Of a stretch of DNA of 64,000 bases, positions 14,044-49,309 are shown piece by piece (position 1 is the stretch's first letter; each line of letters begins with the position of its first letter). Origin of the DNA: Takakia lepidozioides (Eukaryota; Plantae; Bryophyta). The position numbers were made by a program, and so were the translations under genes. The notes under the pieces are model-generated. The model was not told the origin of the DNA and made no database searches. It worked only from the letters and a program-made list of their open reading frames with translations. The stretch lies in the NCBI GenBank assembly GCA_030704615.1, contig CM060731.1, positions 15,190,001 through 15,254,000 on the forward strand. Reading direction: 5' to 3'.

Positions 14044-14520
14044 ACCATGCGCCAGCATACCAATATGAAAACCAGTGTACCCAATGACCAATGTACCAAA
14101 GCTCTTTACCAATGTGCCTACCCTACTGTGGACTATCAATATTGAACTCATCTAAAGTGTAAGAGCCAAGGGGGAGCTTGCCTATACCAGCTTGAGCCTT
14201 GGAGCACCGCGCACAACAAAGAGGGGAATTTTTAGGGTTTCAAAGGAAATGAAAGGTAGCTGGACCCCAGAATGGCCCATGCGCATTGGGTGCCTAGGCT
14301 CCAGCTACCTTTCATTTCCTTTGAAACCCTAAAAATGCCCCTCTTTGTTGTGCGCGGTGCTCCAAGGCTCAAGCTCGTATAGGCAAGCTCTCCCTTCGCT
14401 CTCACACTTTAGGTGAGGGCAATATTGATAGTCCACAGTAGTGTAGGCACATTGGTATAGGGCTTTGGTACATTGGTCATTGGGTACACTGGTTTTCATA
14501 TTAGTATGCTGGTGCATGGT
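14044..14520. repeat. Long foldback: 221-bp inverted arms, 35-nt loop
   Basis: 14044-14264 pairs with 14300-14520; equal arm lengths, scattered mismatches. Confidence 0.93.
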
Positions 14521-21611: not shown

Positions 21612-22587
21612 ATCCTCTCCTCATTCTTCACCTTCCGCTTCAGAAACTGGAGTTCCTGCTTTTGGTGTTCCATGCCAACTCTTATCAAAGATTTCTGTCA
21701 AATCTTTTATCCAGGGATGTACCTCAGATCTTTCACCTCGTGATTGATCTTCTTCCCGTACCAATTCCCTTAATCTTTCTTGCAAAGAAAAAAAAGGAGT
21801 GGCATCCAACTCTAGTTCTTCCGGTATGGGTGATGTACTCTCTGATCTTAATGGTGTGAGAGGTCCAGATGATTCCCCTATGTCTATTCCTCTCTCCCAA
21901 AGATATGGATAATTAGCTTTCAGATAGCTTTCTCTTTTGCTGAATATCTCTGGCGTCTAGCTTCTCTTTCATCACTCATGTCCCATGTCTTTCATTTCTT
22001 TAATGTGGCAATAACCAAAACTCTCTTCTGTAATATCTCTCGTATATGCCTGGGTTTCTTTCAAGCTTCAATGCACCCTTGGCTATACTAGAAGTCTCCG
22101 TTACCATATAACCATATGGCAAACAAGTCTGGAAAGCTTTTCTTGGTGTGAGTTTGATCCACAAAATATCCTTTGGAATCCAATTCTTTACCAATACAAG
22201 CTCTTCATGCATATGAGTATAAACATTCACCTTTCTTTCCTCCCAGCCTTCAAACTCTACTCGCTTAATGGATAGCAATGCTATCACATAAACCAGTGTT
22301 GGTAACCAACGTGCTCTTCCTCTACAGGCCACCTGATAAATCTTTATCACTCCTTTCTCCAAACCCCACTCAGGGTCAGCATCATGCACTCTCTTAAGAA
22401 TGTTTTCTTTACAACCGTCTGGCAATTCCAAGAACCTCTGAAAGAATCGTTTGGACAATCTTTCCTTCTCAGTTTCACAAGGAATTTGATTCACATCAAA
22501 TTCTTTAATTCTCCATCCACCATGATCCCACCAGATGCCTGTCACATCTGGTTGTTCATGACCCAGTTCCCCAGTATGGTCGCCAAA

Positions 22588-23533
22588 TGTCGCGCGGCTT
22601 TTACTCACCCATCCCTTCGCTATCCGAGGTGGGAACTCCAAGATAGAAGAGTTGGAAATCTCTAAGCACTCAGCCCGCTCAGAACAATCAGTCATGACCT
22701 ACAGCTAGTGTATCATGGGGGTGTTTCCTATTTGTACTCCCTCCCGCATTCATGTTAGCGAGTTACCTTACTATCTGCAATTAAGTATCAGTTTGCTTCA
22801 GAAATCTATCAAGTTCCATCCATTCATTCCACAACTTCACTCAGGTCTCTCGACACAGTGTGAGTATGAAGTATGTATCAGATTAATATCTATCAAGTAT
22901 CAGGCTGAAGCCATGGTGTCTCTATTCTGCTCTACATTACAACTCTACTTCTTGCATTCAGCAAGTATCAACAGATCATTCTCCTCCTACTCCGTGCTCT
23001 CCCTCTTCTGCTCAGAGATGCGCTCTCCGCTTCATTTCCAAGTAGTGATCCCCCCCCCCCCGAAGTCCTTCCAGAAGTGATCCCCCAGAAGTCCCCGTTC
23101 TTGACTTTTTCCCCCTACAAGCTGTTCTAACCGCTTTCCTAACTAACCGTCATCCCTGTAGTACACGTTCCTTTTGCAGATGTCGTTCCTTGCCATTGAT
23201 AACTGTTCCCCAGCTGTGCGAAGCTGTGACTGGCTGTGTAAGGCTGTGGCGGACTGTGACTGGCTGTGTCGGGCTGTGTAGGGCTGTGCAAAGCTGTGGC
23301 GGCTGTGTCGAGCTGTGACGGGCTGTGTCGGGCTGTGATTGGCTGTGACGACAGTGTCGGCTATGATTGGCTATGGCGGCTGCGTCGGACTGTGACGGGC
23401 TGTGTAACCCCCCCCCCCCCCTAAAGTGCGCTGCTGTCACCCCTAAGGCTCCTGTTGGTCTCAGTCTGTGCAAAAATTAAGGGTACCCCACAAATCCCGT
23501 AAAAGTGTCTAAGTCCCAAGCAGCCTTCTAACA
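22588..23533 (-). repeat. 5' LTR of element B (946 bp) with internal ~10-bp GGCTGTG tandem repeats (23205-23405)
   Basis: Reverse complement of 31640-32519. Confidence 0.92.
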
Positions 23534-25917
23534 GTACACTTCCCTCGATGGTCTCTCTGCCTACCGAGATGGTACAGGCAGTGAGTGGGGGCGAGCCAAT
23601 GAGGATCACGGGGTGTAGACATCCATGGCACACATGGGAGGTGCTCGAGGTTCAGAGGGAGTTGGCAGCCAAGGCGGCTGTGATGGATGAGGTTGGGGAT
23701 TCTTCTCGGGTTGAGGAGGTCCTCAAGGATGAGATGATGGGGCAGGATGAGGCCTTGTCATTGACTGAGCAGGCAGGGAGTACTGCTCATGAGGTTGCGG
23801 CATAGCAACCACGGGACACGTCTTCTACCTGTAAGTCTGTTGGACTTAAGGTTGCAGTTACGGAGGACAATTGGGAGCCTGACATTGGACCCATTGTCAC
23901 TAGAGGAGAGAGACGACGTATACGGCGGTTCCTGGGGCTTACATGAATTGCTTTGCCTCTCGTGCTACGGTGGAGGAGCATGAGAGACATGTTCAGGTTG
24001 TGCATCGACCGGGTTTGGTCAATAGGGATGCGGATGGATTGAGTCGCAATCCATGCACGAGCCAGCAGGATGACACTGGAGCTCGGTGGCATGGTGAGAC
24101 GGACGCGGAGATGGTGCCGGGATGGCATGCATCTGTCTTTTTGTGTATCTTGGCATTGGGAGGTCAGGTTGGACCTACAACAGGGATGACTGTAGACGGA
24201 GTGTCTGAGGACCCTGAGGCTAGTGATGAGCCAGGTGGTACCAGAGATATACATGAGGATTCGGTTGTGTTGGACTACCTCCGCACTAGAGACACGACAG
24301 CTAGTGTGACTGCCAAGGAGAGGGATCGGATCCTACAACGAGCCAAGAGGTTCAAGTGGGAGGGGATACACCTACTTTGAGTGTGGGATGATGGTCGGGT
24401 GAGGATCGTGCCTCACCCAACACAGCGTGCACGGTTAGTGCGACATGCCCATGAGGAGTTGGGGCATTTTGGAGTGCAACGCACTCATAGTTTACTGCAG
24501 GGGCAGTATTGGTGGCGTGGTATGCACACAGAGGTGCAACAGTTCGTGGCTAGGTGCACGGTGTGTGACAGGGTGCGTGCTTCATTCAACGCCCCTACAC
24601 CACAATTGCATCCATTACCCATCATGGGATTGGGCTACAGGTGGAGTCTTGACTTCGCAGGGCCGTTGCCATTGACGATGCGTCACCACAGATATGTGTT
24701 GGTGATGGTGGAGCACTTCTCCAAGTGGATTGAGTTGGTTCCATTGCCTGACAAGGCTAGTGAGGGGGCGGTGTATGCAATCCTGGATCGTGTGCTTAGC
24801 CGATTCGGTGCTCCAGCTGAGGTACTCATGGACCAAGGGAGAGAGTTCTTGGGGGAGTTTCAGGCTTTGTGTGATAAAGCCTTGATAGACCACCGTACCA
24901 CTTCTTGGGATCATCCTGAGGCCGATGGCTTGGCAGAGAGAGTGGTGCAGACGGTGAAGAAGGGTTTGCGCAAGTATGGCTTGCAAAATGGACACCTAGG
25001 AGTTTGGGATCTTCAGGTACCTTGGTTAGCCATGGGCTTCAGGTTCAGCAAGCAAGCATCACTTGCCTCCTTCTCACCATATTTCCTTCTGGAGGGTCGA
25101 GATGGCATGGTATGGAAGGACCATGTGCGCAATCATGCGCCATGTCACCTTCCACATGTGGATGGGAGGATAGATCCCAACCTTGCAGTGGTACCTGCAG
25201 GATTGCGTTGCATGCTATGTGGGCATGCTCGTGGTGCCGCCACTATGCTGGTGTGTGATTGATGCTCAAGAGGTTGGCACATGGGATGCTTGACACCACC
25301 TCTTGAAAAGGGTTCCTGATGGAGATTGGTTATGTCCACACTGCTTGGGATAGTGGCAGTGGATATGATTAGCTCACAAGACATAGGAGGCCAAGCTCAT
25401 ATGAGTCAATACCCAAGATCTCATGCTCAAGTTCACAGGTTGCAAGACGGCGACTAACGATGGGGCAACTCTTGTACCTGGCCTCTTGATCTATTGAGTT
25501 TGAGTGTAGTAGGGACAATGGTGGAGGATCTAGTGAGGCTATGGCCACTATTACATCTTGTGGCTACCTGGACTTAGAGGGACCTAAGTGTCAGCTAGGG
25601 GGGCGATTGTGATGGACTAGTGGCAGCCTAATGATGGACTAGTGGCTGCACTAGTGGTGGCTAGTGGCAGCCTAGTGGTTGGACTAGTGGCTGCACTAGT
25701 GGCAGCCTAGTGGTGGACTAGTGGCTGCACTAGTGGTGGCTAGTGGCAGCCTAATGGTGGACTAGTGGCTGCACTAATGGTGACTAGTGGTTGTCTAGTG
25801 GCAGCCTAGTGGTGCACTAGTGGTGGACTAGTGATAGACTAGTGTTTGGTGTGCACATATGTTGTGTGGTTTTGGACATCGATGTAGTTGTGTAGCGATA
25901 TGTATGCGCACGACACA
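23534..25917 (+). mobile_element. Ty3/Gypsy element A (DNMT-bearing), 3' half: post-DNMT linker, RT/RH largely deleted, integrase, PHD finger, PPT, start of 3' LTR
   Basis: QVVHRPGLVNRDADGLSRNP; HEELGHFG..CTVCDR (HHCC); WSLDFAGP, DQGREF, GLAERVVQTVK; PPT AGGGGGGCGAT then TG at 25608; CTAGTGG tandem repeats 25608-25845; right boundary approximate. Confidence 0.85.
23943..25353 (+). pseudogene. Integrase with C-terminal PHD finger
   Basis: After the DDE core: CMLC..MLVCD*CSRGWHMGCLTPPLEK..DGDWLCPHC (C4-H-C3 PHD pattern, with one stop and one frameshift). Confidence 0.88.
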
Positions 25918-26503
25918 ATGCAAAATTTCATAAACAGATATCTAGATGGTTCTTCCCTGCAGCTGTCATCATTGGAAGCAGAGTGTGTCCCTTGTTAATT
26001 CTCATTTAGAAACAGACCACACTTCAGCATTGTTGTGGTGCAACAATACCCTTGATATCTTGTTCATGGTCTGAGTGTAGTCACAGCAAGATATGACATA
26101 ATGTTATCCCCCCCACTACCTTAGCATAATTCAGTAACCCTAACTTCTACATAATAATTTTTCTTCCCTTCATTTGCAGAAAGAAATTAAATTGGACTTA
26201 TGATAGAGGTCAGAATGTATATACCCTCGCTGATGTCGGTAGTGATACCCTAGATGAGTTTGTTTCTAGCAAGTAATGAAATGTAAAATGCAAGTTGGCA
26301 TGGCAATGTAAAACACAAGTTTTTGCTTTGAAATTTATTTTATTTATTCTTATATTAATATAGCATATCAAATATTCATCGTTGTTGCCGAATATAAGAA
26401 AAATAGCCTACTCAAAAATGCTATATATTATAAAATTATATAACTATAGGGTGTAGAAAACCAAAAAATTAGATTAATACCCCCTAGAAAATGTAAGCGC
26501 TTT

Positions 26504-29035
26504 TCATGTATGCGGATCAGTATGATTAACCACCCCATGAAGCCTGAACTCCTTCACTGCTGCGGGAGTCAAAGCAGGGTGCATCCTGACAAGGCAGACG
26601 GCCTCAAAAAGGCGGGTCTGCACACAAGACAACATGAAGCACATATGAGTGAATGCCAAGAAAAACATCTGAAAAGAACAGTGCTTCAACCCTCCAAAAT
26701 TGAGTACGTTGACGCACTCATTTTCCGGTTGGGTGAACTTGAACTTGAAATGAAGCAGGCAAGAGAAGGTCCATTACCATTTGCCCCAGACAGTCACCCT
26801 TTGTCAAGTACAGGCTATTCACACCATTCCACGTTTTGATGAACTTCATCCCCGAGGAGCTCCCGTTGACATTTCGTAGTGATGGACTGGATCATTACAA
26901 AAACCCCTGCATTCATTAAAAAAAAATTGCAAAATGAAAAGACCCACCGCCAATACCTCTCGTCAAATGCATTCCATGTTGGGCAAGTACCAGTGGGGAG
27001 AATGTCCGGTACAGTGGCTGCCCATCTGGAATGTCCACAATCACCATGTCTGCACCATACGGTTTCTGAGCACCATTCACCCAACACTGCCCCTTCGAAA
27101 CCTGAAAACAGATAGAAGGCAAAAATTAAATCACTATCCAAAATGGAAAACATTAACAACAACAAACAAGGGAAATTGGCTTACCAACTCAAGAAATTCA
27201 CACAGTTTGGCCCAAGTTCGAGAGGGTTCTCCAGTGTAACCAGATCTCCTGCTCTCTATCATGTCAAGGAATGAATCGTTCACAAGCTCGCATTTACATT
27301 CTCGGAGGATTCTGGATGGGTGCTCCACTGCGTCATATGGCTCAAACTTCCCTTGCGTTTTCGTTCCTTGTTTGCAATTGGGGTCTGCGCTGCCTCATCC
27401 CCTGCAGTCTCCCCTTGGGTGGCCATCTCCTTCCCTTTGTCCTTTGTACCCTTTCCCTTTCCCTTCCCTCTCGCAAGAGTTTTGTTGGTTGCGGGTTCTT
27501 TCTCAGCGAGGTTCCGCAGATTTCTTTCATGCAATTCCTTGTCTGTTAGAGGGGCCAACGACTCCGCATTGTCAAGATACCAGCAACAGTAGTCCTTCAG
27601 GTGATATCTCCCGTAGTCTCCAAGGATGGCTGCCATGAAGGCAGGGTACTTACTGAGGTTTTTCCCTGGAATGAGCACGTTCTTGATATACCTACAAAAC
27701 AAAGGAGGTACACCTTTAGACCGTGGAGGCAAAACAATATGGAGTCTGGCCCTCCCAAAATGCGTGCGTCGACGCACACAGTTTGGGGGTGCAAACCACA
27801 TGACCATGAGGCAACCGAAATCCAGTGCTACCCCCACAAGCAACACAAGCAAATAAGAAAAACATAGGGTTGCATATGCATTAAGATATCCCATTCGTGT
27901 GTTAGATTGTCCTTGATGTTTGAGAACACCCTGACAGGCAGCAAGAACAGCCATCGAAGCAATGAAATCCATGATGGAGGGGAAAACACACATGAGTTGT
28001 GGCCCTCTAAAATTGCGTGCGTTGGTGCACGCAGTTTGGAGGGCCACAAACTGCATGTCTACTGAATGCCAAAGATAAATTTCAAAAAAATGAATTCACT
28101 AACATATACAAGACCCTCTTTATGGCTCCCTCTGCTCCGAACTGCTAGTCAAAGTCATTTGTGCGGGATATGCCTCCATCTCGGGAAAACTCTCTGAAGA
28201 AGCAGTTGCTCCACGCAGTGGCCTTCCACTGTCTCAAGTAATCCTCCAGAGTGTCCTCGGGCATTGTCATCGTTATTTTGTAATCATGACGTTTTTTCTC
28301 CAGCACCCTGTTTGCACGAGCTTCAATCTGTCGGGAGACATATGCCTGGGTTAGAGTCCATGTCTGGGAAGATATTTCTAAAATTTCAAGCAAAGAAAGT
28401 CCTAAATAATACCTGGCTCCAGTAGGTGACTTTGTGCAGCCATGTATCAAAAACTTGGTCGCTGAAGGGTTTGATGTGCCCAGTGTTCTCATCTCTTTCC
28501 CCCCTAGGGAAGCAGTATGTATCCTTGACAGTTGAGTCGGAATTCCAAATCTCCAACCATTTCACTTTCTGGTCTGTGTCCACCGCTATAGTTAACAACC
28601 GGTGCAGCTTCTCCTGTGTCATTTCCGGTTTGGTGTTATTGTTCCAGTGGATCCTCACCTGGTTTAGGAACTCGTGACCAAAATCAGGGTTAGCTATTCT
28701 CAGCTGCTTCACGAAAGCGCTCATGAGCTTCTTCCGGGTCTCATTCATCTGCAATTTCATGGCTTCTGCCACTCCCTTGGACATTCTCATACCCTCCAGG
28801 TTTTTCAAATAGTACTCTGCTTTTCCTCTCTCTCCAGCTTCAGCTATTTCTTGCTGCAAAACGTAAATCGGAATGAGATCACATATTACTTACAATTGCA
28901 ACAGACAATGGAAGGCCCAAGTGGTGGAATACTTACCGTGTACATGTACTCCATGAATGCTTCCCTCGTCAGCTTGTACCAGGTGTCTGACATTTTGGAT
29001 GTCAAGCATTTCTTGAAGGACTCCGCACTTAGGAT
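26504..29035 (-). pseudogene. Transposon-associated beta-class amino-MTase-like gene, copy 1 (multi-exon, C-terminus missing)
   Basis: Homologous to 48429-51230: HLKDYC.WYLDNAESLAPL, HPSR..GYTGEPSRTW, ADMVIVDIPDG, KTWNGVNSLYLTKGDC, TRLFEAVCLVR; shared intron positions. Confidence 0.7.
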
Positions 29036-29250
29036 CACTACAGCAAATGGGGGGGTTTTGCGATGCCAGCCACGCCCCACGCCCTGCGCGGCGCCGAGCA
29101 TGCAACGCCAACCTCGCGACGCCTTTTTGCGATGCCCGGCCGTCGCAAACAGACACCGCGGGTCGCCACCTGGCGTCGGGGCCATGCGGCGACGCCCGGC
29201 CGTCGCACGGGCGGATGAAGGGCAGGAGGCAGCCCTTCCGTGCGTAGGCC
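29036..29250 (-). mobile_element. CACTA terminus belonging to the 18.3-20.2 kb remnant
   Basis: CACTACAGCAAATGGGG at 29036 followed by the same GCGACG/CGTCGC repeats. Confidence 0.75.
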
Positions 29251-32200
29251 TGGTGGTTATAACAATGGCATGGAAGGGAGAGGTAATTCAAGAGGGAATT
29301 ACCAAAGAAATTCCAGAGGCAACTATCAGGGTAATCCAAGGGGGAATTACCACCCAGGGAATCAGGATTACAGAAATAATCCAAGAGCAGACCAAGGGCG
29401 AGGACCCAATGGTGAAGAACTGTGTTACTATTGTAATCAGCCAGGACATCGCAAGGCAGCCTGTTCATTCTGGATTAGACACCAGAATGAGATGAGAGCT
29501 CCTGTGAATGAGGGCCAGTGGTGGCAGCTCACATGGCTAGGCCATGTGTTGTACCAGAAGTAAGTACAATGATAGTAACAAGAAGCAAAGCCAAACCAAT
29601 ACCTCCAGTAGTTGAGGAAGATGATGATAATGGAAATGGCAGTGATATGCCTAAAGATGATGAGGCTTGGAGAGATGAGAAGGAACTGCACAAGGAAGTG
29701 GCAGATACCATAAGGGAAATGCAAAAGAATACTGATATTCCTGTGGCAGATTCCTCTGATTCTGATGGAGAAGAAGAAGTGAGTGAGGATGAAAGGAAGA
29801 AAGAAGTTGCAGACATGCAAAGTAATAAAGGGACTTTGGCTGAAGTAATATGCCAGACCAAAGCAGAGATTACCATTGGACAGCTATTGGCTGTGGCACC
29901 TTATTGTAGACACAGGCTGTATCAAGCAATCAATCGAATTGCCCAGGAGACAGGAAACACAGACCCTGAACAACAAGGTGACCAGTTATAATGTGAAGCC
30001 GGAAGGGCGAGAAACAGTCATGGACTTTGATGATTCTATGCCAGTAATCCAATTGAGAATTGGAAGCACATAACTAACTGATGTACTGATAGATGGAGGC
30101 TCTGGAGTAAATATCATGACAGACCAATTAAGGAAGAAGCTTGGTCTAAGTAACATGAAACCAGCCCCATTTACAGTAACAATGGCAGATCAAAGAAGTG
30201 TACAGCCATTGGGATTGATAAGAGGAGTTAAGATACAGATACAGAAGATGATCTTTATTATCACAGTAACTGTGTTGAAGATGAAGTCATAAAAGTAAAA
30301 AAATGGAGGCTTACTCTCCTTATATTATTGGGACGTCCGTGGCTGAAACAGGCTAGGTATTTCATGACTGGAATTCTCAGTTACTAACTGTGCATAATGG
30401 ATGCACGAGATACAAATTAACCACTAAGAAATCTAGTAGATTTACCTGCTACGAGAAGAAACCTCGAGGGGTCAGAGATTATGATTGGAGGGGAGGACTG
30501 GATGAGGAGCAGGAAGCTACCCCTGTTCGCTGCCACCCAGAGTGGGAGCAGGTTGCAGAGATGCGGCTGGAAGGCCTAAGTTGTTTAAAGAGTTCTGCGT
30601 GGTGGGTAGTGACAGCAACCCCAATTGAAAGAGAACCAGCAGTTACCTATCACATTTCTATGAAGAAAGAGAAGGAGAAATGGAAATCCTAGAGGAACCA
30701 ACCGCCCTGTGAGTTTACATGATGAAGTGGGTGACTGGTTGGACAATCACAGCTGATGAGCAGGTGAGGGAAGTGAATGTGGGAACTGAAGAGGAACCGA
30801 GGATGGTGAAGGTAGGAGCTGATTTGGAGCCAGAATTCTTTGAAGAAGCTAAGAGTTGTTCATCAAATACAGAGATGTATTTGCTTGGAGCTATGAGGAT
30901 CTAAAAGGTATACCCCCTGAGATCTGTCACATAAGATTGAACTGGAACCGGTCAGTACCAATCAAGCAGGCGAGGTACAGAATGAATCCCAACTATGCAC
31001 AGAAGGTTGGAGAAGAGATCAAGAAGTTGGCTGAGGCTAAGTTTATATACCCAATAGAGTATACAACTTGGTTGTCACCCATTGTGATAGTTCCCAGAAG
31101 AATGGTACTAAGAGTTTTGTGTGAACTATAAGAAGTTGANNNNNNNNNNNNNNNNNNNNNNNNNNNNNNNNNNNNNNNNNNNNNNNNNNNNNNNNNNNNN
31201 NNNNNNNNNNNNNNNNNNNNNNNNNNNNNNNNNNNNNNNNNNNNNNNNNNNNNNNNNNNNNNNNNNNNNNNNNNNNNNNNNNNNNNNNNNNNNNNNNNNN
31301 NNNNNNNNNNNNNNNNNNNNNNNNNNNNNNNNNNNNNNNNNNNNNNNNNNNNNNNNNNNNNNNNNNNNNNNNNNNNNNNNNNNNNNNNNNNNNNNNNNNN
31401 NNNNNNNNNNNNNNNNNNNNNNNNNNNNNNNNNNNNNNNNNNNNNNNNNNNNNNNNNNNNNNNNNNNNNNNNNNNNNNNNNNNNNNNNNNNNNNNNNNNN
31501 NNNNNNNNNNNNNNNNNNNNNNNNNNNNNNNNNNNNNNNNNNNNNNNNNNNNNNNNNNNNNNNNNNNNNNNNNNNNNNNNNNNNNNNNNNNNNNNNNNNN
31601 NNNNNNNNNNNNNNNNNNNNNNNNNNNNNNNNNNNNNNNGCCAACACAGCCCGTCACAGTCCGACACCAGCCGACACAGCCGCCACAGCCAGACACAACC
31701 GTCACAGCCAATCATAGCCGACACCGTCGTCACAGCCAATCACAGTCTGACACAGCCCGTCACAGCTCGACAAAGCCGCCACAGCTTCGCACAGCCCTAC
31801 ATAGCCCGACACAGCCAGTCACAGTCTGCCACAACCTTACACAGCCAGTCACAGCTTCGCACAGCTGGGGAACAGTTATCAATGGCAGGGAACGACTGTG
31901 AGGGAACGACATCTGCAAAAGGAACGTGTACTACAGGGATGACGGTTAGTTAGGAAAGCGGTTAGAACAGTTTGTAGGGGAAAAAGTCAAGAACGGGACT
32001 TCTGGGGGATCACTTCTGGAAGGACTTCGGGGGGGGGGGAGAGATCACTACTTGGAAATGAAGCGGAGAGCGCATCTCTGAGTAGAAAGAGGGAGAGCAC
32101 GGAGTAGGAGGAGAACGATCTGTTGATACTTGTTGAATGCAAGAAGTAGAGTTGTAATGTAGAGCAGAATAGAGACACCATGGCTTCAGCCTGATACTTG

Positions 32201-32519
32201 ATAGATATTAATCTGATACATACTTCATACTCACATTGTGTAGAGAGACCTGAGTGAAGTTGTGGAATGAATGGATGGAACTTGATAGATTTTTGAAGCA
32301 AACTGATACTTAATTGCAGATAGTAAGGTAACTCGCTAACATGAATGCGGGAAGGAGTACAAATAGGAAACACCCCCATGATACACTAGCTGTAGGTCAT
32401 GACTGATTGTTCTGAGCGGGCTGAGTGCTGGGCCTGAGTGCTTAGAGATTTCCAACTCTTCTATCTTGGAGTTCCCACCTCGGATAGCGAAGGGATGGGT
32501 GAGTAAAAGCCGCGCGACA
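29247..32519 (+). mobile_element. Ty3/Gypsy element B, 3' half: gag tail, protease, start of RT, gap, 3' LTR
   Basis: CYYCNQPGHRKAAC; VLIDGGSGVNIM; YRDVFAWSYEDLKGIPPEIC..WLSPIVIVP; LTR ends GCGACA at 32519 followed by TGTAC (reverse complement of GTACA). Confidence 0.88.
31140..31639. other. Assembly gap (500 N)
   Basis: Run of N. Confidence 1.
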
Positions 32520-32524
32520 TGTAC

Positions 32525-33580
32525 TCCCCACTCTGCATTGCTCAGCTATAGCTAAGCTGATAATCCAGGTCAAGCAATTGAAATCCATTGCTTGCCCCAA
32601 CACCCGACGACGTGATGCCTCAGAAAGAGACGACGCCGCCGTGGTACCAGTGGTAAACCCCATTGCCCGCTCACGCTCGTCAGCATTAGGCTCCACTAAC
32701 TGCTACAACTGAGCATCCCACAGGAGGCCAGGTCCACTATCCCGGAAAGCATGCGATCCTGGGAAGCTGAGCAAAGTAGGTAATGTTGCTCGTGGTTGAC
32801 CCACCTTGTTGACCAATGTCAAAGGCGAACGGTCATCGTGTCTCACACGCTGAGCCTGCCTCCCTGTGTCCAAAATACTATCCACTGTGAGGTGTGCTGG
32901 CCGCTGCACCCCATCAAATGCACGCTTGAGCAGTGCGGGTGGCATCAAGTTAGTCCACCATAACCGTGGACGATGAGTTCGTGACCCCACTGCAGCTGCA
33001 TCTAGCAACAGTGCTGACCCAAGCCACGACCGGACTTGATGCACACTGGCCATCACCCTGGACCAAGAATTGCCCATTAGTGGCACATTCTCCAAGATGT
33101 ATGCTGGAGATACAGCTTGATGAAGCTGTAAGTGGCGCAAAACCCGCACCATCTCCCAAAACAGACCCGACCTTGAGTCTCACAATCTATTGCCATGCCC
33201 GGCTGATGAATGCCCTTGGCAGGGCCAACCTGCCACTACCAGATCAATGGAGCCAACCCGCACCAAATCCTGCGCCCCCAGCAGCAAAATGTCTGCTGGT
33301 AAGGCCTGCTAGCAGCTGACACTGACGACGTGAAGTTCTTCCAGCAAACCCCAACCCTAATTATTACAGTAGTTCTAATTCTAAATTGCCTCCACGAACT
33401 GCAGACACCGGCAATAACTCAGGGTACTGCTGCACCAACTGAGCAACATGGCGTAGGGAGACGCGTCATGCAATCTCATCCCTCTCCACATATAAGTACC
33501 GCCGTGCTCGTACACCTGCTTGTAGAACAGCAGCCAACCCGGTGCTGATCTCGCCAAACAAGTCCAGAAGGCAAATGCCT
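32525..33580 (-). pseudogene. Retrotransposon-encoded C5 cytosine DNA methyltransferase domain (DNMT3-like)
   Basis: Motif I LLDLFGEIST; IV IDLVVAGWPCQG; V DSRSGLFWE; VI YILENV; VIII HRPRLWWTNL; IX EPNADERERAMGF; X RRRVLGQAMD; several stops. Confidence 0.92.
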
Positions 33581-33627
33581 TCATCCGGATACTGCAACAC
33601 GATCAGTGTGGTGTCCAATGGTGACAA

Positions 33628-34338
33628 CTAAGGTGGTCCTGGTGCAATCCCCGCACTGTCATCCTCTCCTGACGATACAAAAGCCTCTACCCAGGCTTGT
33701 TGCACACGACAATCAGCAACCCGCTGCAAATCCTTGCTCGAGCCCCACAATGGAGTGTGAGCAACCATGGCAGGCAACTCCGCCATACCATACATGTCAT
33801 CTTGCTCTCCCGGAGGAGACACATCCTCTGAATGAGTGTTGCTATTCAACAACTCTCCAGGCCAAGTCACTGCAGCTGTGAATGCTGCCAGTGTTGGCAT
33901 CTTGCCTCGCTGGGCAACCGTAACTCCTCCTATGAACGTCACAGGGAGCTGCACACGCCGGCCCTCCCCTGACTGCCATCCAGGCCTATAGGAAGCTGAC
34001 TCCTCCCAAAAATCCAGGGTGAATCCCATGGGGTACAACACTGCCCCACCAACAAGGACATCGTACGAGACCGTGTCTGTCACAATGGCCTTGGCTCTCA
34101 TCACTGAGCCATCTGTAGGATGATCCGGCTGTAGTCTGATAGCCAACTCACGCCGTGTCATGCCCCGAGCCTGCTCTGACCCTCCTAGAGATGTCTGTAT
34201 CTGGAAAGGGCACGGCTCCATATCCGCCTCCGTGAGGCCCAATCCTGCAACAGCAGCTCTGCCCAGCATCAATGGCTGAGCTCCCGAGTCCAACAAGACC
34301 CGCAATGGCCGGTACCTCTTGCCTGTCGGTCCACTCAA
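33628..34338 (-). pseudogene. Retropepsin protease of element A
   Basis: LRVLLDSGAQPLMLG..SYDVLVG. Confidence 0.85.
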
Positions 34339-35027
34339 ATAGAAAATGCCATCTGGTTGTCTAACATGACAACTCCAGGTGTCACCATGGCGCGCTCAAT
34401 GGCTGGCCTAGCTGATAGCTCCATCAACCTGGCAGCTGCAGCTTGCCATGGCGCCGCCGTGGCAGTCTTGATCCTCACATGTGAGGATCCCTCCGACACT
34501 ACACCTCCCACTATCTCCGCAGAAGATGAAGTAACCTCCCCACTCTCACAGAGTGTCGATGCCAGCCTAAACACCTCAGCTGGTCTTACCCCCGGCGTCA
34601 CAATCATGGTAGCCGAAAACAATGGAGCCTGGCACACAGATGTGGCCGCCCCCAGCAGCACACTAGCTGCCGTAGCCTTGGCAATACTAGGTAGTGGTGC
34701 TGCCTATGTAGCTCTCCCCAATGGTATGGTAACCTCCGCCTCGGTAACAGTCAGGCGGGAACTAGGTGCCATGGACGGCGTCGACACTGTCTCCGCCAAT
34801 GTGAATGACAAAGGAAGCCTGGACTGACGGCTTGCCTCCCCACGCTGTGGATCCAACTCCACATCAGCACCTTGTGGCTCAGGAACTCGTGCTGCTCCTC
34901 AAGTCACTGCCGCAGCTGACTCCACTTGCACTAGTGGTAGTCGTGCCCCACCCACAGTGGTAGTGGTAGTTGCACCCCTCACTAGTGGTACTGCTGCCCC
35001 ACACATGAATCCCATGCCTCCTAAGTC

Positions 35028-36535
35028 TCATCCCTTAGGAGCAGGAGGTGGACCATCCAGCCTTGGAGTCGGTACCACCTGAGCTGTGGCCATGGCAGCG
35101 AGCCTCTGCTCTAGCTGCTGAAACCGGTTGGCCATGCCTTGGTCACCACCCTGACCTTCTCGTCCTTGGCCATACTGAGCCTGCCCTTGGCCTGCACCTC
35201 GTGCCTGACCACCTCGTCCTCTCTGGGCTGCTCCACCTCGCCCCCGGCCACCATTGTTCCCTTGGAACTGGCCTGGGCGCAACTCAGGGTGCAAACCATA
35301 GCACTGGGCCTCTCCATGCCCGTACCTGCCACAATGCCCACACTGCACCTGTGCAAGCTGTGCCGGTGCCAAACCATTGCCTCCCTCTGGGCAATCCTTC
35401 TTGACATGGGGTCCTCTACATGTCCAGCACACCACATCCGCCCGTTGTTGGCCAGCAAATGAAGGGAGAGACCCCTGCATCTGAGGTCTTCTCTGCCCTT
35501 CCCAGGGCTTCACCTGAGCCCCCTTGCTGCCTTGAGCACGTTGAGGTCATGGCTGACTAGGAGCACCACTACCCCGTGGTGCCTCCTTAGCAAATCCCAC
35601 CATGACCACTCGTTCCTCCACCATGTTGAGCTCTATCCGCTCTGCCAGCAAAAACACATTTGCTAAGGTGGGTTGGGCCGCTTGTAGGAGAGTTGCATCC
35701 CGCACCCTTCTCCTCAGCTCCTTGTCCAATATCCCATACCAGAACTGGACTGCCTGAGCCTCCGTAACCCCTTGGATTACATTTATCAAGCGCCTCATGC
35801 GAGTGAAAGCCTCCCTCAAGCTCTCAGTAGGCTTCCTCTGGAACTCTTGCAAGCTCCTCAACTTCTCTATCCTCACCTCTTGGTAGTTCCTTCTCAACTC
35901 TTCAAAGAACTCCACAACAGGGTTGAAGGCAGGCACCGCCACTGGTGCTGGTGCAGCAGTTGCTTGGGTGGCCGTCGTAGTTGCTGTACCACTAGTCCCA
36001 CTACTGCTCGTGGAAGCTGCTGTTGTAGCTGTTGCTGCCAGTGTGGCTGCTGCCCTTGTGCCTCTAGTGCCTCTAGTGATGGAGACATAGTCGGGTGACC
36101 AGTACATCCTCTACTCCTCGATCTCAACATCGTGCCCCCGCCTAAACTCATGGTAATCGTCCATGGGCGGCCCCTCAAGGTGCTGAAACAGCCCCTTCTA
36201 TGCCATGAAAGGCGTAAACAGTTGTGGATTGCGCATTTGCTGCAAGTCACACCAACTATCAAACTCTTGGATAAATCATCTAACTCAATAGTGCCCACCG
36301 CCCCAGAGTACCTTCGTGGCTCCTTGGTGGCTCCATACATCTCCTCCATTGTGTCCCACAACAATGGCAAGGAAACAACTTGCACCGCCGGTGTGAGTCC
36401 TCTTGATTCACAATCCGAATCAAAACCTTCCGTAGAAGACACAGGAGGTGAAGGTGGCCTAAACCGCACATCTCGTCTCGTATACCTGCTAGTATCGCTA
36501 GTGCTCGTACCGGCACTTTCCCCAACAACTAGTAG
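35028..36535 (-). pseudogene. Gag of element A
   Basis: EFFEELRRNYQ..FQRKPTESLREAFTRMRRL; two zinc knuckles; RGG-rich tail. Confidence 0.82.
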
Positions 36536-38894
36536 CACCTCCGTGTTGACAAACTAGCACTCAAACGGTCATGAACCTGTCTCTAACCCCCTCTCCACAA
36601 GGTAACCGGGTAGAGAACCTGATGCGGCTTATGGTTTGGAATACTAGGTTCCTAACATAGCCCTGCACCTGCACCTGCAGGGAAGTAATCTCTTTTGTTA
36701 AAACGCAACAATGAGGCAATTCCGACTTTTCTGCCGGATCAGCTAGCTCAAAACCGTTGTTCTTCAGAGCCCAACCTCCCCATCAAGGTCCCACGAAACG
36801 AGTGAAAAAAGAATTTTTATTTTTATTTTTATTTCTATTTTTTCACTCTAACTGTTCGTGGCATTCCGTGGCTCCAACCGCCACTACTCCTCACGGCCCG
36901 CCCTAGGCGCTCGTTGGCCACGGGCTGCCCAGTGATACCCCGTGGTACCACTCCCACGAGCCTTCACGGCCCGCCATCCTCATGATCTGGTCACCGTGCC
37001 AACCCGTTGTGTCCGCACAACGGCTTCCAACGGTCACGGTCAACCATCACGATCTGGGCTCGTGGTATCTCGTGATACCGCCCCAACGGTCCATCACGGC
37101 CACTATTCCTTGCGTTCCTTGGAACTCCCAACGTGTTCCCATGCGTTCCCGATGCGTTCTCGACGTTCCCACGTGTTCCCGAGCTCTCCCCGAACTGGGG
37201 TTTGCTCCTGCATCTGCTGCCGCTGAGCTATGGCTTCTGCGGAGCCATCAGCCCCGTCGCCCTGCACTCCTGAGCTCTCACGGCCCCACTAGAAGTGCCC
37301 CCAACTCAACAAGCAAGCTATATGCTGCCCAACAAGCTCCATTTCTCCACGAAACTCACAAAAGTGAATCTGAAAATACACACCTTGATAAACTTGGTGT
37401 ACCTGCAGTTCTACTGCACATTCCCTGGCTCTAGAACGCCTCACTGCTGCCCTTCCAGCCCTGCTCTTGCCACTCCAAGAGCCCTCGCCGTGCTAGAGTT
37501 TCAGATTGAAACTTCCAACTCAAGCAATACTTCACAAGTGCACTGATTTGCACACAAGAGGGACCAGCCCCCTCTCTTCACTCATACCTCTTCATGAGCT
37601 TGGAGCTGCAGCTCCCAACAGGCTGCGATGCATCCCCTCGCAGCTCCGCCATTCGGCTGCTCCTCATCTACCCGCAACAACTCGTTTCGGGCAGATACCT
37701 GGAACTGATCATATCATCTCCAACCTACAACATGCTAACTTCCCATGCGCAGCCCACATTTCAGCAGCTCTATAACTCGGCATGCAGCTAAAGAAGACGA
37801 CCACCAGTTCGCCCACTCGTGGCCAGCATCTCCTCCGCTTCACACTAGAAGCCCAAACTTGGTTGCCATAGCATTGAGCTATGCAACGCCGCTCTTCAAC
37901 ATGGGCTACCCGCCTCTCTATCCCATGGCAAACCTGCAACCTGTTCGCCTTTGCACTCTATCCGCTTTGGATAGGCTCATGCACGGCTCCCTGCACTCTA
38001 GGCTGAACCGCTTCTCATGATCTGAAAACACAAGTGCTGCAACTAACTCGAACCTGGCACTCACAGACTCGAGCTGATCTTTCTTGAGTGATAGGGAAAG
38101 GAATAATACAAGCACACAAGCTCTCTCAAACTCACATACTTGCACATGAAAACATCACTCATATATTAAGTCGAGCCAAGTGCACCCCACGCCATGGGGA
38201 ATCCACACTACGGCGCCATAGCTAGACGCGGTGAGGCTCAACTCGAGAAAGATGAGCCCACCGCGATCTACCATGAAGATAACAACGTCAGGTGCCCAAA
38301 CATGTATTGGCCCCTGGATTGACACTTGGATCAATCCCAAATCTCAATATATAAAAGCTAGCTATTTCCTAGCTAATTTCACACCAGTGGTAAAATAACT
38401 TGACAATCGGTATATAACAAGGGATACATTGATAGTTGCATAGGAAGGCCAGTCGTCAGAGAGAAAAGAAATAAAATGGAAGGGGAGAACATCATGGCAT
38501 ATGCAATTACACATGTTCATCGTGGATCTAAGTAATCAAACAGCTTAACCCTAGCTTTGCCCACACTTTACAGTGTAGGGCAAGGTCATTCTCTGGTCAA
38601 TGAACAATCAGCTAACTAACTACAAAGGGGTTTTTGCCCCTTTCTTTTCACACTACACATCCATACACTGCTTGACACAAGTCATTCAAACATACCTTCA
38701 TCCTATGAGTAATTCTAAATAAAATATAATTGGAGCCTTTAACCTCTACCCTATATTCATTTAAATGCTCCCGCCTATATTTCTCATACCCTATATTACT
38801 TTGAAAAATGTTCTAATTTTTACTTGTAGAGAATAAATGGCACCCTATATTTTTAAATTTTTTGCACGTTATGTGGTAATTTTTGGAATTGGAC

Positions 38895-39400
38895 GCCCCA
38901 AGGTGAAAAGATTAAAAGCAACTGCAACTGAAACGATGTATTCCTCAATTAAAAAACTTGCATCATGTAATTATGCAAGCCTTAAATATAAGTTTCTATG
39001 GCAACATTATGAAGACATTAATCATGATCATAACCTTCAAATGTCTCACATCTTATGTCTTATAGAAACAAGAATACACCACTCATCAACTGATGTGCAC
39101 AAGTACATAAATTCATCAAAGTATTCATATGTTCAATCAATGACGGTCATGGATTAATGATGATGTATAAGATACACATGAACTTAAACTCTTTCAATAC
39201 AACAACCAGTAATGGCTCGCAATTCATAGCAGCCACATTCAATACCAATACATGAAAAGCAATACATATTGTATGTGTTTATAAAGCTCATTCATATACA
39301 GTTTCTACGTTCCTAATCAAACTTAAAGCTCGCCCAAACATTGTCCAATTATTATTTTGGGAGATTTTAATGTTGAGATTTTGGAAGACAATAACCATGC
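38895..39400 (+). mobile_element. Helentron/Helitron-like remnant: AP-endonuclease-type domain
   Basis: VKRLKATA..QHYEDINHDHNLQMSHILCLIETRI..IHIVCVYKAH..CPIIILGDFNVEIL (catalytic E and GDFN motifs of the EEP fold), frameshifted. Confidence 0.6.
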
Positions 39401-39429
39401 AAAAAACAAATAACAGGGTCAGACTCATA

Positions 39430-39828
39430 GGGTCCAAGGGGGTGTTGGCCTTGGATTTGGTAAGGGAGCTCTCCCTGATAGTAACTGCCATCCTTTTGGC
39501 TGGGCGGGTTGGCAGTTCATCGGTTGCTGAGTTTGGGGACCATTCAGAGAGGATATGTGCGAAGAAAGCGTGTGGTTTGGGCTCATGTTGTTGGAAATCA
39601 TGGACACGGAAGATTTCATGATAAGGAGCTGCATATGAGGCAATTCGAATACCATGCAGGGGGAAAGGTTAGGCCAGCACGGCCGACACCGGCTGACACT
39701 TTGGATGTTCTTCTGTTTCAGGGGTTCAATTGGGAATCCCCTAAACAATATCCTTGGTGCTGAATTTCCAGAGTAAGGTAGAGGACCTGACTGAACTGGG
39801 TGTCACAGATGTCTGGCTTCCTCCTGTC
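39430..39828 (+). pseudogene. Alpha-amylase N-terminal fragment
   Basis: Hydrophobic leader then DVLLFQGFNWESPKQYPW / LNFQSKVEDLTELGVTDVWLPP (frameshifted). Confidence 0.85.
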
Positions 39829-40554
39829 ATGGCGTATATTCAAGAGCCAATTGTATCTCAAATTGAACATTCATTCTTTAGCTGGATACTAACCTCCTAT
39901 GGCGAGGTGTGGGTAACAGGGTATAGAATCTTAGCCTGAAATTAGCACAGTGCTCGTATAATTAGCTGTTGACAAGTCTACTACAGGAAACTGAGTGTGA
40001 TTGGATGCCTACATTGACCTCACTTCAAACACATGAAACACTACGTCGGCACTGTTATTAGAGTAATCTCTCTGGATTGCCACTCCCAATCACACTGTTC
40101 AGGTCAAATGGGGCATAGATGACCTCATGAGAGATCAAATGATATGGTGTAGACTTTATCCCATTGACCAAATGTTGCAGCTTGTAACATACTAGAAAGT
40201 GTACAATGTACATAGGTATACAGAATCAAAGGTCTTTTAGTGCCCATCTTGATCATTGTTATCTCAAATCCACTCCACACTTCAAGCATATGCTATTAAA
40301 ACTTCTTATTGACAAAAGAATAGTAGAGAATGCCTCGACATCTGCAAAATTTATTAGCTGACAATTGTTTATGTTTTAGAAACAACAGTGCATCAACATC
40401 AATGGTTGAAATGATATTATCTTTTGACCATTTCTTTATTTTAAGAAGTGATATTAATAAATTTCCTACTTCCATTCAATCATGTCAAGTCTGTTGTTTC
40501 TTGTTAAACACACAGTTGGCAAAGAATGAGTTCACAATTTATTATGTTTTGGAA

Positions 40555-40786
40555 CATGAGTGTATCAATTTCCAGAGTTGCACTCAGTTGATGTAACTGA
40601 AACGACAGCTCGAGAAGCAAGATTAGTGAACAGAATGTTGCACTTCGAGTTGGAGCAGAAAGAGGTGGAATCGACCCCTCTAAGACTTAAAGTGGAGAAT
40701 ATGCGAATAATTCAAACTGAAATGCATACTCTAAATGAGAAACTGAGTCTGCTACAAATAAACTGATAGAGGAGCTACAATCTGAG
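40555..40786 (+). pseudogene. Coiled-coil host exon interrupted by chromovirus C; continues on minus strand from 54167
   Basis: ..ELEQKEVESTPLRLKVENMRII..IEELQSE joins RWESQGTILLYINMLKEAEKGTVKAQKELE across TSD CTGAG. Confidence 0.5.
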
Positions 40787-41512
40787 TGTCGCGGCCCTTT
40801 GACTTGAGGGCAGGGGGTCGGGACACGAGAGGGGCTGCCCCTGTGGTGGGGGCAGTGGCAACTATAGGTACGGGGGGTAAAGTACCCTTGAGTGCCTTGG
40901 GCACTCAAGGAGGCAGAGGCGCTCACTAGGTGGAACCCCGCACACCGGGTTGCGGTGGGGGTGGTTCCACGAAGGGTGGTGGTAGCTTAGTGAGTCTTAG
41001 TGGGGGTGGCATAGGACTCACCATGGGGCGGAAACCTTGTGGTGGGAGTCGTGGGGAGTCTTGGGACTCATCACGGTCCAATGGGGCCGTGGTGGGTGGG
41101 CCAAGACTCACCGCGACTTATCACCGGGAATTGAGGGTTTTTGTGGTGGTTCGCCATAAAATGACTTGGTTGTTTGTGAAACCCCCGCGGACAGTCACAG
41201 AAGTATATATAGGGAGTAGTAACCCCGAGAATGGTGCAAGCCCGTTGGTGACCAAAAAATAGTGAGTAAACGTGCGGGCCGGAAAGCGACCAAGGTGTGG
41301 GGAGTTGTTCCGGACTGCCAACAACCAAAGGGAATTTTCCACTAGGCCCAAATTGAAAGAGGGTCTTGTGGAGGAGTAAAGGGGGACCGTTATGTCCCGG
41401 TGAGCAGCCGAAGCTCCGAGTTGGCCCGGCGGCCAGTTTGGGAGTTAGGCGCGCGCATCAAAGCGAGTAACTATGACTTGAAGGGGAGCTTACCGAAGTG
41501 AGGTGCGTGACA
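40787..41512 (+). repeat. 5' LTR of element C (726 bp)
   Basis: TG..CA; 3' part matches reverse complement of 54168-54647. Confidence 0.92.
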
Positions 41513-41567
41513 CTTGGTATCAGAGCTTAGAGTTCAGTACGCAATCGTCCTTGAGATCGGCCTCATC

Positions 41568-44500
41568 ATGGGGTTGGGCAAGACAAAGCGAAAGCGGAAC
41601 GGCTCGAAAGATGATGATGCGGGTGAGCCCGATGGGGGCGACGTGTCACCGAAGCGGCAATCGGAAGAGGCGATTCATGCTTCTGAAAGCGAGGCCGCAC
41701 AAGGACGGGAGGAATTTTGGGAGTCGGAGCCCGAGGACTTCCCAAAGGCTTCGCCAGACCAACAGATGTCTCCCATGCCAGCAGCCTTTTGGGAAGGGTT
41801 GTTGGCGAAGTTTGGCAGGACGTTGAAGGACGTGTTGAAGGCGGCTAATGCCACTCCTACTAAGGCAAAGTTTAAGGTAAAGCCTAAGGAACCCAACACC
41901 TTTGAGGGCGTCCGAAATCGGAAGTCACTCAACACCTGGCTCTTGGAGCTAGAGAAGTACTTCCGGGCGGCCAAGTTGAGTGACGAGGATCGGGTGGAAG
42001 TGGCTCCTACCTATTTGAGGTGTTATGCTCAACAATGGTGGCAGAAACGCCTTCATGACCAAGGTCCAAACCCAGAAACCTTGAGCTGGAATGGGTTCGA
42101 GGAACTTATGAAAAGACAGTTTGTGCCCCTCAACGCATCATGGCTCGCCCGGGACAAGTTGAGGAATTTGAAGCAAACGAATGACATTCGGGGATATGTT
42201 CAGGCTTTCAATGTGCTGTTGCTCGAAATCGCGGATATGGCGGAACCAGAAATGGTCTTCAACTTTGTGGCGGGATTGGCCCCATGGGCCAGGCGGAAGT
42301 TGGAGGAGAAGCCACCTAAGACTTTGAACGAGGCAATTGAAATAGCTGAATGTTTCTCGGATGTCCCTAGGGGCAAAAGACAAGGCCGTACGGAGCTGAA
42401 CCACAAGAAGACTCGGCGGGAGGATGACTCCTTCCAACTGGAAAAGAAGCGGGATAGGCCACGCGACGACAATGGCACATGGAAATCGAAGGGAGGGCCT
42501 TCACACGTCAAGGCAACACCCGGTGCTCCGAAAGGAAAATCAAGTGCGACGGCTTATGGCGGACAGAAGGCGACCTTTGACCTTTGATGGAGTGTGTTTT
42601 AATTGTGGGGAGCCTGGGCACATGGCTAAGAAGTGCGCGAAGCCCCGTCAATTGAACTCGGGCGACTGTCCGAAGATTCCATCAGCCGTTTGGTGGAAGC
42701 GGTGGTCGCCAAGACTTGCAAGGAGCGTTGCACTCCTTCATGACACCGGCAATGGCATGGAAGCTGGAGCTCCCGACAAGTGATGTGGGGGCCTCCATTG
42801 AAGTGCTTTCAGCCAAAAGAGAACCACAATTGGCGACGAGGTTGGCTTCCTCTTCAGCTCGGGAGTTGGGAGGGACATGAGAACTTCACCATTTGCGAGA
42901 TCGATGGAGTGGATCTCATTTTGGGGATGACATTTTTGAGCAAATCCGGAGCAGTCATAGATGGCCGCAAGAGAATAGTCACGCTACCGTGTGGGAATGG
43001 TGGCAAGTGTTACGGGAGTCGGAAACGCCCAACCAAGTGGGAGGGCGAATAAACTTGCTGTTAGCAAAGGATCTAATGTCAAAGGGGTACATCCGGCCGA
43101 GTAAGTCACCCTACGGAGCCCCGGTGCTATTCGCAGACAAGAAAGATGGGATGCTGCGGATGTGTGTCGATTACAGGGCTCTATATAAGGTGACTATAAA
43201 AAACTGGTACCCTTTGCCAAGGATCGACGACCTCTTCGATCGGTTGGCAGGAGCGAAGTATTTCAGCCGAATCAATTTGCGCTCCGGCTACCATCAAATC
43301 CGAGTGGCGGAAGGAGATGAGGAGAAGACCGTGTGCAGGACAAGATATGGTTCATATGAGTTTTTGGTGATGCCTTTTGGGTTCACCAACGCACCCGCGA
43401 CCTTTAGCACGCTAATGAATAGCCTTTTCCAGGAGTGGTTGGATGACTTTGTGATTGTGTACATCGACGACATCTTGGTGTACTCAGAAACAAAGGAAGA
43501 GCACCTGGAGCACCTCAAAAGGGTGTTCCAGAAATTGCGGGAAGGGAAGCCGTATGCCAAAGCTTCAAAGTGCGAATTCGGGGTCACAAAAGTGGAGTTC
43601 CTAGGGCATTTGATTACACAGAATGGGATCAAAATGGATGACAGGAAGGTGAAGGTGATCTTGGACTGGGAGCCTCCGACTTCGGTCCCGGGAGTGCGAT
43701 CCTTCCTAGGACTCGCCTCCTATTACCGAAAGTATGTAAGAAATTTTGCCAAGATCGCGGGGCCACTGTCAGACCTTCTGTGTAAGTCCCAAGTATGGGT
43801 ATGGAACACCTTTTGTGGCCAGGCTTTTGCCGAGTTGAAGCAGCGGATGGCGGAAGCTCCAGTCCTGAAAATCCCGGAGTTCGACCGTCCATTTGAGATT
43901 CATACAGATGTGTCGGACTTCGCAATTGGGGGTGTGCTCATGCAGGATGGACGTCCAGTGGCTTACGAAAATAAGAAACTGAATGAAGTAGAGCGACGGT
44001 GGCCTATGCACGAGAAAGAAATAAAGGCGGTGGTGCATTGCCTTCACTACAACAGATCGCGGTATTTATGACTGTATATATGACTATTCTGCAGTCATAA
44101 ACGGTACCTATGACTTCTATGACTGTAAGACGTGCAAACCAAATGAATACAATGAATAAAGGATGGTACGGTCCGGATAACTACAGTCAAATAAACCAAG
44201 TGATATCTCTCACTGTAGTTATATATACCATACTGTAGTCGCCGCTGCCGCGCCACGTGGCGAGAAGCAATTGATTATAAAAATAAAAATAAAACATTTT
44301 TTAATAAAAAAAACTAAAAAAATATGTCAGACGTCACGTCGTACCGCGTTGTGCCACGTGGCATAATGCATTTTATAATAATGAAAAAAACCACATGACA
44401 GCCCATCTAAGGTGTCACGTGCTATCCCTAGCTCGCCTACAAAACCTAGTCCAACTTATCCATTTGATTATACTTAGAGGAGTATGAACCTGCAACCTCT

Positions 44501-49300: not shown

Positions 49301-49309
49301 CTTTCACCA

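Follow-up and report, generated by a model that had tools for sequence, protein, structure and literature searches.

The window, by which we mean the whole 64,000-nucleotide stretch of DNA analysed here, contains a Ty3/Gypsy-type retrotransposon (element X) that carries an unpermuted DNMT3-like C5 methyltransferase (DNMT) on the minus strand at 32523-33627, 3' of its gag and protease. There is very little doubt that element X represents a genuine bryophyte family with a DNMT3-like domain. On balance, we also favour a chain of events in which the Gag-protease-DNMT protein of this family ends at a leaky stop and the enzyme is packaged at the level of Gag and methylates the element's own cDNA.

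The methyltransferase domain of element X

The motifs follow one another on the minus strand in the canonical order I to X: LDLFGEI (33547-33567), YVERD, AGWPCQG (catalytic Cys codon at 33219-33221), YILENV, HRPRLWWTNL, ERERAMGF and LGQAMD. This includes every motif named in a preliminary description of the locus, which had placed them downstream of the protease. The PF00145 profile, proposed there as a check, gave only a weak match (E 6.9e-4 on one 34-aa piece, with no Pfam match on three other pieces); the broken pieces nevertheless align at 67-70% identity to natural PF00145 proteins. The features of the domain are as follows.

33391-33627, minus: N-terminal part of the DNMT3-like domain, with motif I, motif II and one stop at 33468
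33550-33552, minus: codon for the motif I Glu that replaces the conserved Gly (from translation)
33310-33390 (or 33391), no strand assigned: insertion of ~80 bp, a short repeat 79% alike to 63082-63167, which shifts the reading frame
32523-33308, minus: C-terminal part of the domain, with motifs IV (PCQ), VI (ENV), VIII, IX and X; 70% to P0003
33182 and 32705, minus: stops in the C-terminal part (from translation)

The preliminary description reported stops and a G-to-E change in motif I, and judged this copy to be probably dead. Both lesions are present, and the judgement gains from the rest of the damage: three in-domain stops, the motif I Glu, the ~80-bp insertion, a deleted RT, and the break-up of the copy by an inversion and a younger LTR element. 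A further stop, at 33630, lies immediately ahead of the domain. New relative to that description are the frame-shifting insertion, the inversion, the loss of RT along with most of RNase H, and a stop in read-through context at 23803-23811. The insertion is peculiar to this copy, as contigs of other copies skip it (runs X1, X3 and X8), and the motif I Gly lost here is kept by the element X family. The repeat itself (33310-33391 and 63082-63167, 79% alike) appears in additional contexts among the contigs.

To place the enzyme structurally, we turned to an intact homologue, P0005, whose best PDB matches are DNMT3A (E 6e-12), DRM2 (1.6e-4) and M.HhaI (4e-3). Its AlphaFold model (pLDDT 87, pTM 0.87) matches DNMT3A/B structures at E 5e-18. 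Among 128 relatives, the catalytic Cys is conserved in 90 of 95 covering sequences, the Glu of ENV in 86 of 93 and the Asn in 93 of 94; in motif I, Phe is found in 74 of 75 and Gly in 71 of 75. Catalytic and SAM-binding residues are thus kept in 92-99% of covering relatives, against a background of 65%, with the arginines of motifs VIII and IX less conserved (82-89%). DUF3444 had no match on the window pieces or on nine homologues, and the domain is colinear with gag and protease, with no introns.

Layout of element X and its interruption

The preliminary description noted a 5-bp target duplication (GTACA), across which the coding frame would continue at 23534 and onward. The duplication is real, with TGTAC at 32520-32524 and GTACA at 23534-23538. 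The continuous frame also holds: Logan contigs from two runs made on the same sample span the join 32520/23539 (1 contig in one run, 3 in the other), and the natural protein P0085 covers both element X pieces, at 83% and 78%.

The duplication flanks a nested Ty3/Gypsy element (element Y), a younger insertion that interrupts element X at 32520. The LTRs of element Y, which show 8 differences in 601 non-tandem bases, are inverted because the segment at ~20275-29245 is flipped, and the remainder of element X therefore reads on the plus strand from 23534. A loose contig end at 29244 in run X5, an independent run, matches minus-strand Y gag ending near 20275, uniting the two halves of this gag. An assembly flip at the N gap was considered as the cause of the inverted LTRs and rejected, as the breakpoints at ~20275 and ~29245 lie away from the gap.

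32520-32524, plus: target-site duplication of the element Y insertion, copy 1, TGTAC
23534-23538, plus: target-site duplication of the element Y insertion, copy 2, GTACA; joint 23539/32520 in contigs
31640-32519, plus: 3' LTR of element Y, an inverted match to 22587-23405; left end lost in the 500-N gap at 31140-31639
29245-31139, plus: gag C-terminus, protease and RT start of element Y (zf-CCHC and Asp_protease_2)
22588-23533, minus: 5' LTR of element Y (LTR match), followed by the primer-binding site at 22570-22585 and the Y gag N-terminus down to ~20275
20275-29245, no strand assigned: inverted segment, both breakpoints within element Y gag and each adjoining a short GC-rich repeat

With the two pieces joined, the rest of element X reads as listed below.

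35031-36349, minus: gag (capsid-like region and two zinc knuckles; Retrotrans_gag E 1.7e-4), with stops and a frameshift
33631-34395, minus: aspartyl protease and linker (Asp_protease_2 E 3.5e-3; 51-56% to P0003/P0009)
23539-23802, plus: C-terminal tail of ORF1 (gag-protease-DNMT); P0085 78% over 23530-23742
23803-23811, plus: stop of ORF1, TAG CAA CCA, a read-through context after which ORF2 keeps the frame
23806-23935, plus: first ~43 codons of ORF2, aligned by eye with the ORF2 start of L028
23979-25112, plus: RNase H end, then the zinc finger and core of the integrase (Integrase_H2C2 E 7e-17, rve E 1e-13; 62% to L028 ORF2 476-845)
25200-25344, plus: PHD finger ending ORF2 (62-69% to the PHD-bearing P0089 and L028), with a stop and a frameshift
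25345-26215, plus: 3' non-coding part with a 22-bp tandem array; depth at family level to about 26215, then a drop of >100-fold

The gag is 44-50% alike to Marchantia P0009/P0013, starting at residue 1, and has 3 stops in its main frame. Directly behind the ~43 ORF2 codons comes a deletion that took out RT and most of RNase H, such that residues ~46-475 of the L028 ORF2 are unmatched here; loose contig ends lie near this deletion at 23841 and 23962. A second deletion, near 25090, removed about 100 codons from the C-terminus of the integrase. The order in the window is that of a Gypsy element, gag-PR-DNMT-(RT deleted)-RNase H end-integrase, and the DDE integrase follows RT/RNase H in L028, L002 and P0319. 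A sensitive blastn of 36300-41050 against 25300-26400 found no terminal repeats of element X and no DIRS-like split repeats.

The CpG observed/expected ratio is 0.36-0.58 in element X, 0.16-0.20 in the DNMT-less element Y and 0.84-0.87 in the DNMT-less element Z. As element X falls between two elements that have no DNMT, its CpG level says nothing about self-methylation.

Abundance, selection and host

The element X family is very abundant. Summed contig depth in run X1 is 0.4-0.9 million over the DNMT, and gag, protease, DNMT and integrase are alike at 0.4-1.1 million, compared with 1,600-4,300 for the DNA alongside and 38-82 for those single long contigs that were listed. This sum is not a copy number; it puts the DNMT on a par in abundance with the other parts of the element. 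Five point lesions of this copy are absent from 94.5-99.98% of the contig depth. Sites segregating at 20-80% fall on the third codon position in 9 of 11 cases (7 of 8 inside the DNMT), giving P 0.0014 in a test that took in 40 of 60 sites for 33000-33800 and in which contigs of one family are not independent. Changes private to this copy, in contrast, fall there in only 5 of 18 cases. Such a pattern is what selected lineages together with a single decaying copy leave behind, and the third-position excess points indirectly to purifying selection on the DNMT among copies.

The preliminary description had raised the possibility that the domain is found only in this copy or that the contig is algal contamination. 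Neither was borne out: the domain is fixed in an abundant family and occurs in bryophyte relatives, and the window carries land-plant genes. A last XTH exon at 2609-3043 (plus) has its best named match in Physcomitrium patens at 63%, with seed plants at 45-52%, and PPR fragments are present, with decayed PPR repeats at 62000-63900. From these XTH and PPR pieces, the host is likely a moss.

Relatives and phylogeny

Named relatives at 63-78% identity come from Marchantia polymorpha, Calypogeia fissa, Riccia sorocarpa, Sphagnum troendelagicum and S. tenellum, and more distant ones from Closterium, Klebsormidium and Scenedesmus; vascular plants gave no named match in the relative lists returned. 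The Marchantia gene models combine gag, protease and DNMT in one protein, and the same domain order occurs on chromosome-scale contigs of Marchantia, Calypogeia and Sphagnum. At E under 1e-30, 269 proteins were recovered from 1.84 billion representatives. Among the 30 that were looked up, those named belong to Klebsormidium nitens (1), Closterium (4 clusters), Scenedesmus (1) and Marchantia (1). The labels 'Obscuribacterales' and 'Leptolyngbya' on P0046/P0149 we read as eukaryotic contamination of MAGs, and cyanobacterial hosts were rejected.

Two layouts recur. The first, protease-DNMT-RT, is that of the window, Klebsormidium, Closterium, L028 and L002; the second, RT-RNase H-DNMT-integrase-PHD, is that of Scenedesmus and most of the long matches. 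An earlier FastTree covered 193 proteins plus the window. Our quick tree has 62 rows, with 48 P proteins hand-chosen to span clades, long outgroup branches, and host DNMT3 and DRM left out. All green-plant-type retro-DNMTs, including the Klebsormidium retro-DNMT3, form one clade in this tree (52 rows, SH-aLRT 97); the second layout makes up a single subclade (99), and a further group (99) unites the window with Marchantia, Calypogeia and Sphagnum. The preliminary description had proposed a phylogeny with charophyte retro-DNMTs and host DNMT3/DRM; this tree, built from retro-DNMTs and outgroups, shows the common clade with the charophyte enzyme (97) and leaves the backbone without resolution. 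It is plausible that the lineage persisted from charophytes into an embryophyte, because Klebsormidium and Closterium have the same domain order.

Chromo domains had no match in the 23 long relatives scanned, which have PHD fingers instead, and the window has a PHD remnant; this sets the group apart from the chromovirus branch. Viral contigs yielded 18 loci, all of them distant methyltransferases of prokaryote type. Among the 14 loci from genome contigs, 3 contigs bore the element, and we read these as eukaryotic contaminants of MAGs. Gypsy elements with a DNMT, intact or nearly so, were observed at L028, L029 and L030, filed in bacterial MAGs (Synechococcales, Minisyncoccia and Cyanobium), and are likely eukaryotic contamination of these bins. 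Decayed whole elements at L002 (2226-11846) and L003 (2181-11732), with 38% GC, read protease-DNMT-RT-RNase H-integrase-PHD and have split direct repeats in the arrangement A ... B A B (326-bp A at 84-85%, 130-bp B at 85%), the arrangement known from KnitGypsy-Dnmt3. Besides RT and a DNMT3-like domain, the DIRS-type elements at L004 (7258-10888) and L005 have a tyrosine-recombinase-like ORF, and they resemble SymbioDIRS-Dnmt3.

An in-frame stop after the methyltransferase

ORF1 of element X ends in TAG CAA CCA at 23803, and ORF2 continues in frame. The same arrangement is found in L028, an intact distant relative only 49% alike to element X in the DNMT, where an ORF1 with 1162 codons seen is followed by TAG CAA TCA and an in-frame ORF2 of 1047 codons (RT-RH-INT-PHD). 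UAG-CAR-YYA is the type I or tobamovirus read-through consensus, as given in the available part of PMC3542737. The chance of a CAR-YYA context is about 1/512 per stop. The 9-mer occurs six times in the window, as chance gives, and only its position carries weight.

Among 46 close relatives in which the domain end is covered (P0085 left out), 11 end 77-80 residues past the domain, at an alignable place, and one runs on for >200 residues. Sister groups also stop at recurring distances past the domain (96, 117 or 129 residues), several of these proteins being members of one cluster. The motif is lacking in the decayed distant elements L002/L003, and in P0260, P0319, P0192 and the Closterium proteins P0309/P0210 the DNMT runs into RT without a stop. 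The read-through context is therefore seen in two DNA sequences and is not universal. Given a UAG-CAA-CCA stop with RT in frame behind it, ribosomes likely read through the end of ORF1, and the enzyme would be made at Gag level.

A proposed packaged enzyme and alternative roles

In the chain that we favour, Gag-protease-DNMT would be the major product and Gag-protease-DNMT-Pol (RT, RNase H, integrase and PHD) the minor, read-through product. Once packaged, the DNMT would be freed by the protease inside the particle and would methylate newly made element cDNA; both its catalytic activity and this substrate are predicted. The gain to the element would be that new copies arrive already marked, which may shield the cDNA from host surveillance or keep insertions quiet.

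The best placed of the alternatives, itself unlikely, is that the enzyme acts on chromatin at or after integration, where a PHD-bearing integrase complex would bring the DNMT to its target and mark the new locus or other elements. A PHD finger does close ORF2, both in element X and in the majority of full-length relatives, and a DNMT located between RNase H and integrase, as in the chlorophyte-type clade, would be tied to the integration complex. In the element X lineage, however, the DNMT precedes the stop together with Gag and protease, so it would exceed integrase. Next in standing, and again unlikely, is a non-catalytic or RNA-directed role, with the protein acting as a nucleic-acid chaperone in the particle, as a decoy for host DNMT3 partners, or in RNA methylation. 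In its favour stand the lack of activity of the Klebsormidium homologue in yeast (PMC5890265) and Gag-level amounts that exceed the need for methylating one cDNA, but the SAM-binding and catalytic residues are kept well above background, and the fold and closest structures are those of the DNA enzymes DNMT3A/B, not DNMT2.

It is improbable that the element and the role of its enzyme are as we propose but the stop is a true stop, with ORF2 expressed through splicing or an internal promoter. Tca2 offers a precedent, since the flanks of its in-frame gag stop did not direct read-through in yeast (PMC2194720, available part); against this, the exact CAR-YYA context and the same frame occur in two elements that are 49% alike. 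Finally, a host DNMT3 fragment that landed in one copy by chance, or an algal contaminant, is hardly credible in view of the family-wide depth and joints, the bryophyte chromosome-scale contigs with the same order, the XTH and PPR pieces, and the lack of introns and of DUF3444.

Returning to a packaged enzyme that marks cDNA, we also put forward, tentatively and with more doubt than belief, a broader history. An ancient green-plant PHD-Gypsy clade may have carried DNMT3 since before the chlorophyte/streptophyte split and moved it to two places in Pol, with bryophyte elements bringing it to capsid level by means of a virus-type leaky stop. Where very abundant, such elements would supply de novo methylation that has so far gone unrecognised, marking cDNA in the particle and perhaps shaping the host methylome in addition to the five methyltransferases counted for Marchantia.

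Other features of the window

Two related decayed multi-piece genes lie at 26450-29240 (minus) and 48700-51200 (both strands), 46-71% alike in tblastx pieces. They share the motif DMVIxDIPDG (27012-27104 and 50636-50728), and EKSPAFIQ...VLDLSMGTG is found near 48750-48850. These motifs presumably recall amino (N4/N6) DNA methyltransferases; the pair had no Pfam or PDB match. Because the first gene stops where the inversion breaks, it may be part of a DNA transposon.

A second Gypsy element has gag at 41511-42584, RT at 42881-44068 and integrase at 44997-46157, and its CpG is undepleted (o/e 0.85). Its LTRs, at 41035-41514 and 54166-54647, are 95.6% alike and inverted, pointing to a second inversion within 64 kb. 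At 14044-14520 there is a MITE-like, near-perfect hairpin of 477 bp with 227-bp arms (93%). DNA-transposon-like remains comprise a SWIM-finger ORF at 55061-56398 (minus), a related ORF at 61039-61830 (minus), a Myb/SANT ORF with a neighbouring transposase-like ORF at 5484-8297, which we take to be Harbinger-like, and an unclassified ORF left of the inversion at 18307-19350 (plus).

Significance and comparison with known systems

What retrotransposon-borne methyltransferases do has been an open question since 2018, the algal hosts having few genetic tools and the Gypsy enzyme having been silent in yeast. Close relatives of the element X enzyme with all motifs are unnamed gene models in Marchantia polymorpha, for example Mp4g09160, and the count of five Marchantia methyltransferases in the available part of PMC5784723 leaves such retro-DNMT models out. 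Marchantia is a model plant with editing tools and methylomes, which makes self-methylation of cDNA testable. The placement of the stop predicts an unusual stoichiometry, in which protease and DNMT match Gag in amount. Copies of this kind may also be taken for host DNMT genes, and so miscounted, by annotation pipelines.

In the literature searched, which covered open texts and some supplements, we found neither the leaky stop nor a land-plant occurrence of such elements reported. Such elements in land plants had no mention in the available parts of PMC12344493, PMC6453930, PMC11244446, PMC6673714, PMC5784723, PMC2194720 and bioRxiv 10.1101/363937, nor Marchantia in the available main text of PMC5890265. 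PMC12344493, in its available text, gives the range as 'streptophytes and dinoflagellates', and its supplement has no match.

The nearest known system is KnitGypsy-Dnmt3 of Klebsormidium nitens, a DNMT-bearing Gypsy-type element with DIRS-like repeats (de Mendoza et al. 2018, PMC5890265), in a species with 33 DNMT genes in all (supplement of the same paper). It shares with element X the Gypsy type and an intronless, unpermuted DNMT3-related domain with the key residues. The K. nitens protein GAQ93235.1 (P0241), which we infer to be a KnitGypsy-Dnmt3 copy, has zinc knuckle, protease and DNMT in the same order as element X. Element X differs in living in a land plant and in its great abundance, and the two are not sister groups in the quick tree. 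In KnitGypsy-Dnmt3, moreover, the DNMT lies in the Pol ORF with RT (PMC5890265), whereas element X and L028 have an in-frame stop of leaky type between them. The Klebsormidium enzyme produced no methylation in yeast, a result that its authors deem inconclusive (PMC5890265).

SymbioDIRS-Dnmt3 and SymbioLINE-Dnmt of Symbiodinium are also retrotransposon-borne C5 methyltransferases, and the DIRS enzyme methylates CG de novo in yeast (PMC5890265). These elements belong to other retrotransposon orders, and the DIRS-type loci L004/L005 fall outside the green-plant Gypsy clade in the quick tree. Host plant DNMT3 (PpDNMT3a/b; Yaari et al. 2019, PMC6453930) has the DNMT3 family fold and motifs in common with element X, but is an ordinary multi-exon gene with a C-terminal DUF3444 (PMC6453930), neither of which is a feature of the element X domain. 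DRM has rearranged motifs, VI-X before I-V, whereas the element X domain runs in the canonical order I to X.

REM1 of Chlamydomonas is a PHD-bearing LTR retrotransposon for which, to our knowledge, no methyltransferase has been reported. As in element X, the PHD finger sits in a green-lineage element of Gypsy type.

In tobamoviruses, SIRE1 and MuLV, an in-frame stop sets the ratio of structural to enzymic protein, and the six-base context in element X is that of TMV (PMC3542737, PMC2194720). The stop of element X follows protease and methyltransferase, and comes neither directly after gag nor before an env-like gene. We conclude that this kind of element was known, and that the present analysis adds its land-plant range, a second position of the domain in chlorophytes, and the putative read-through stop.
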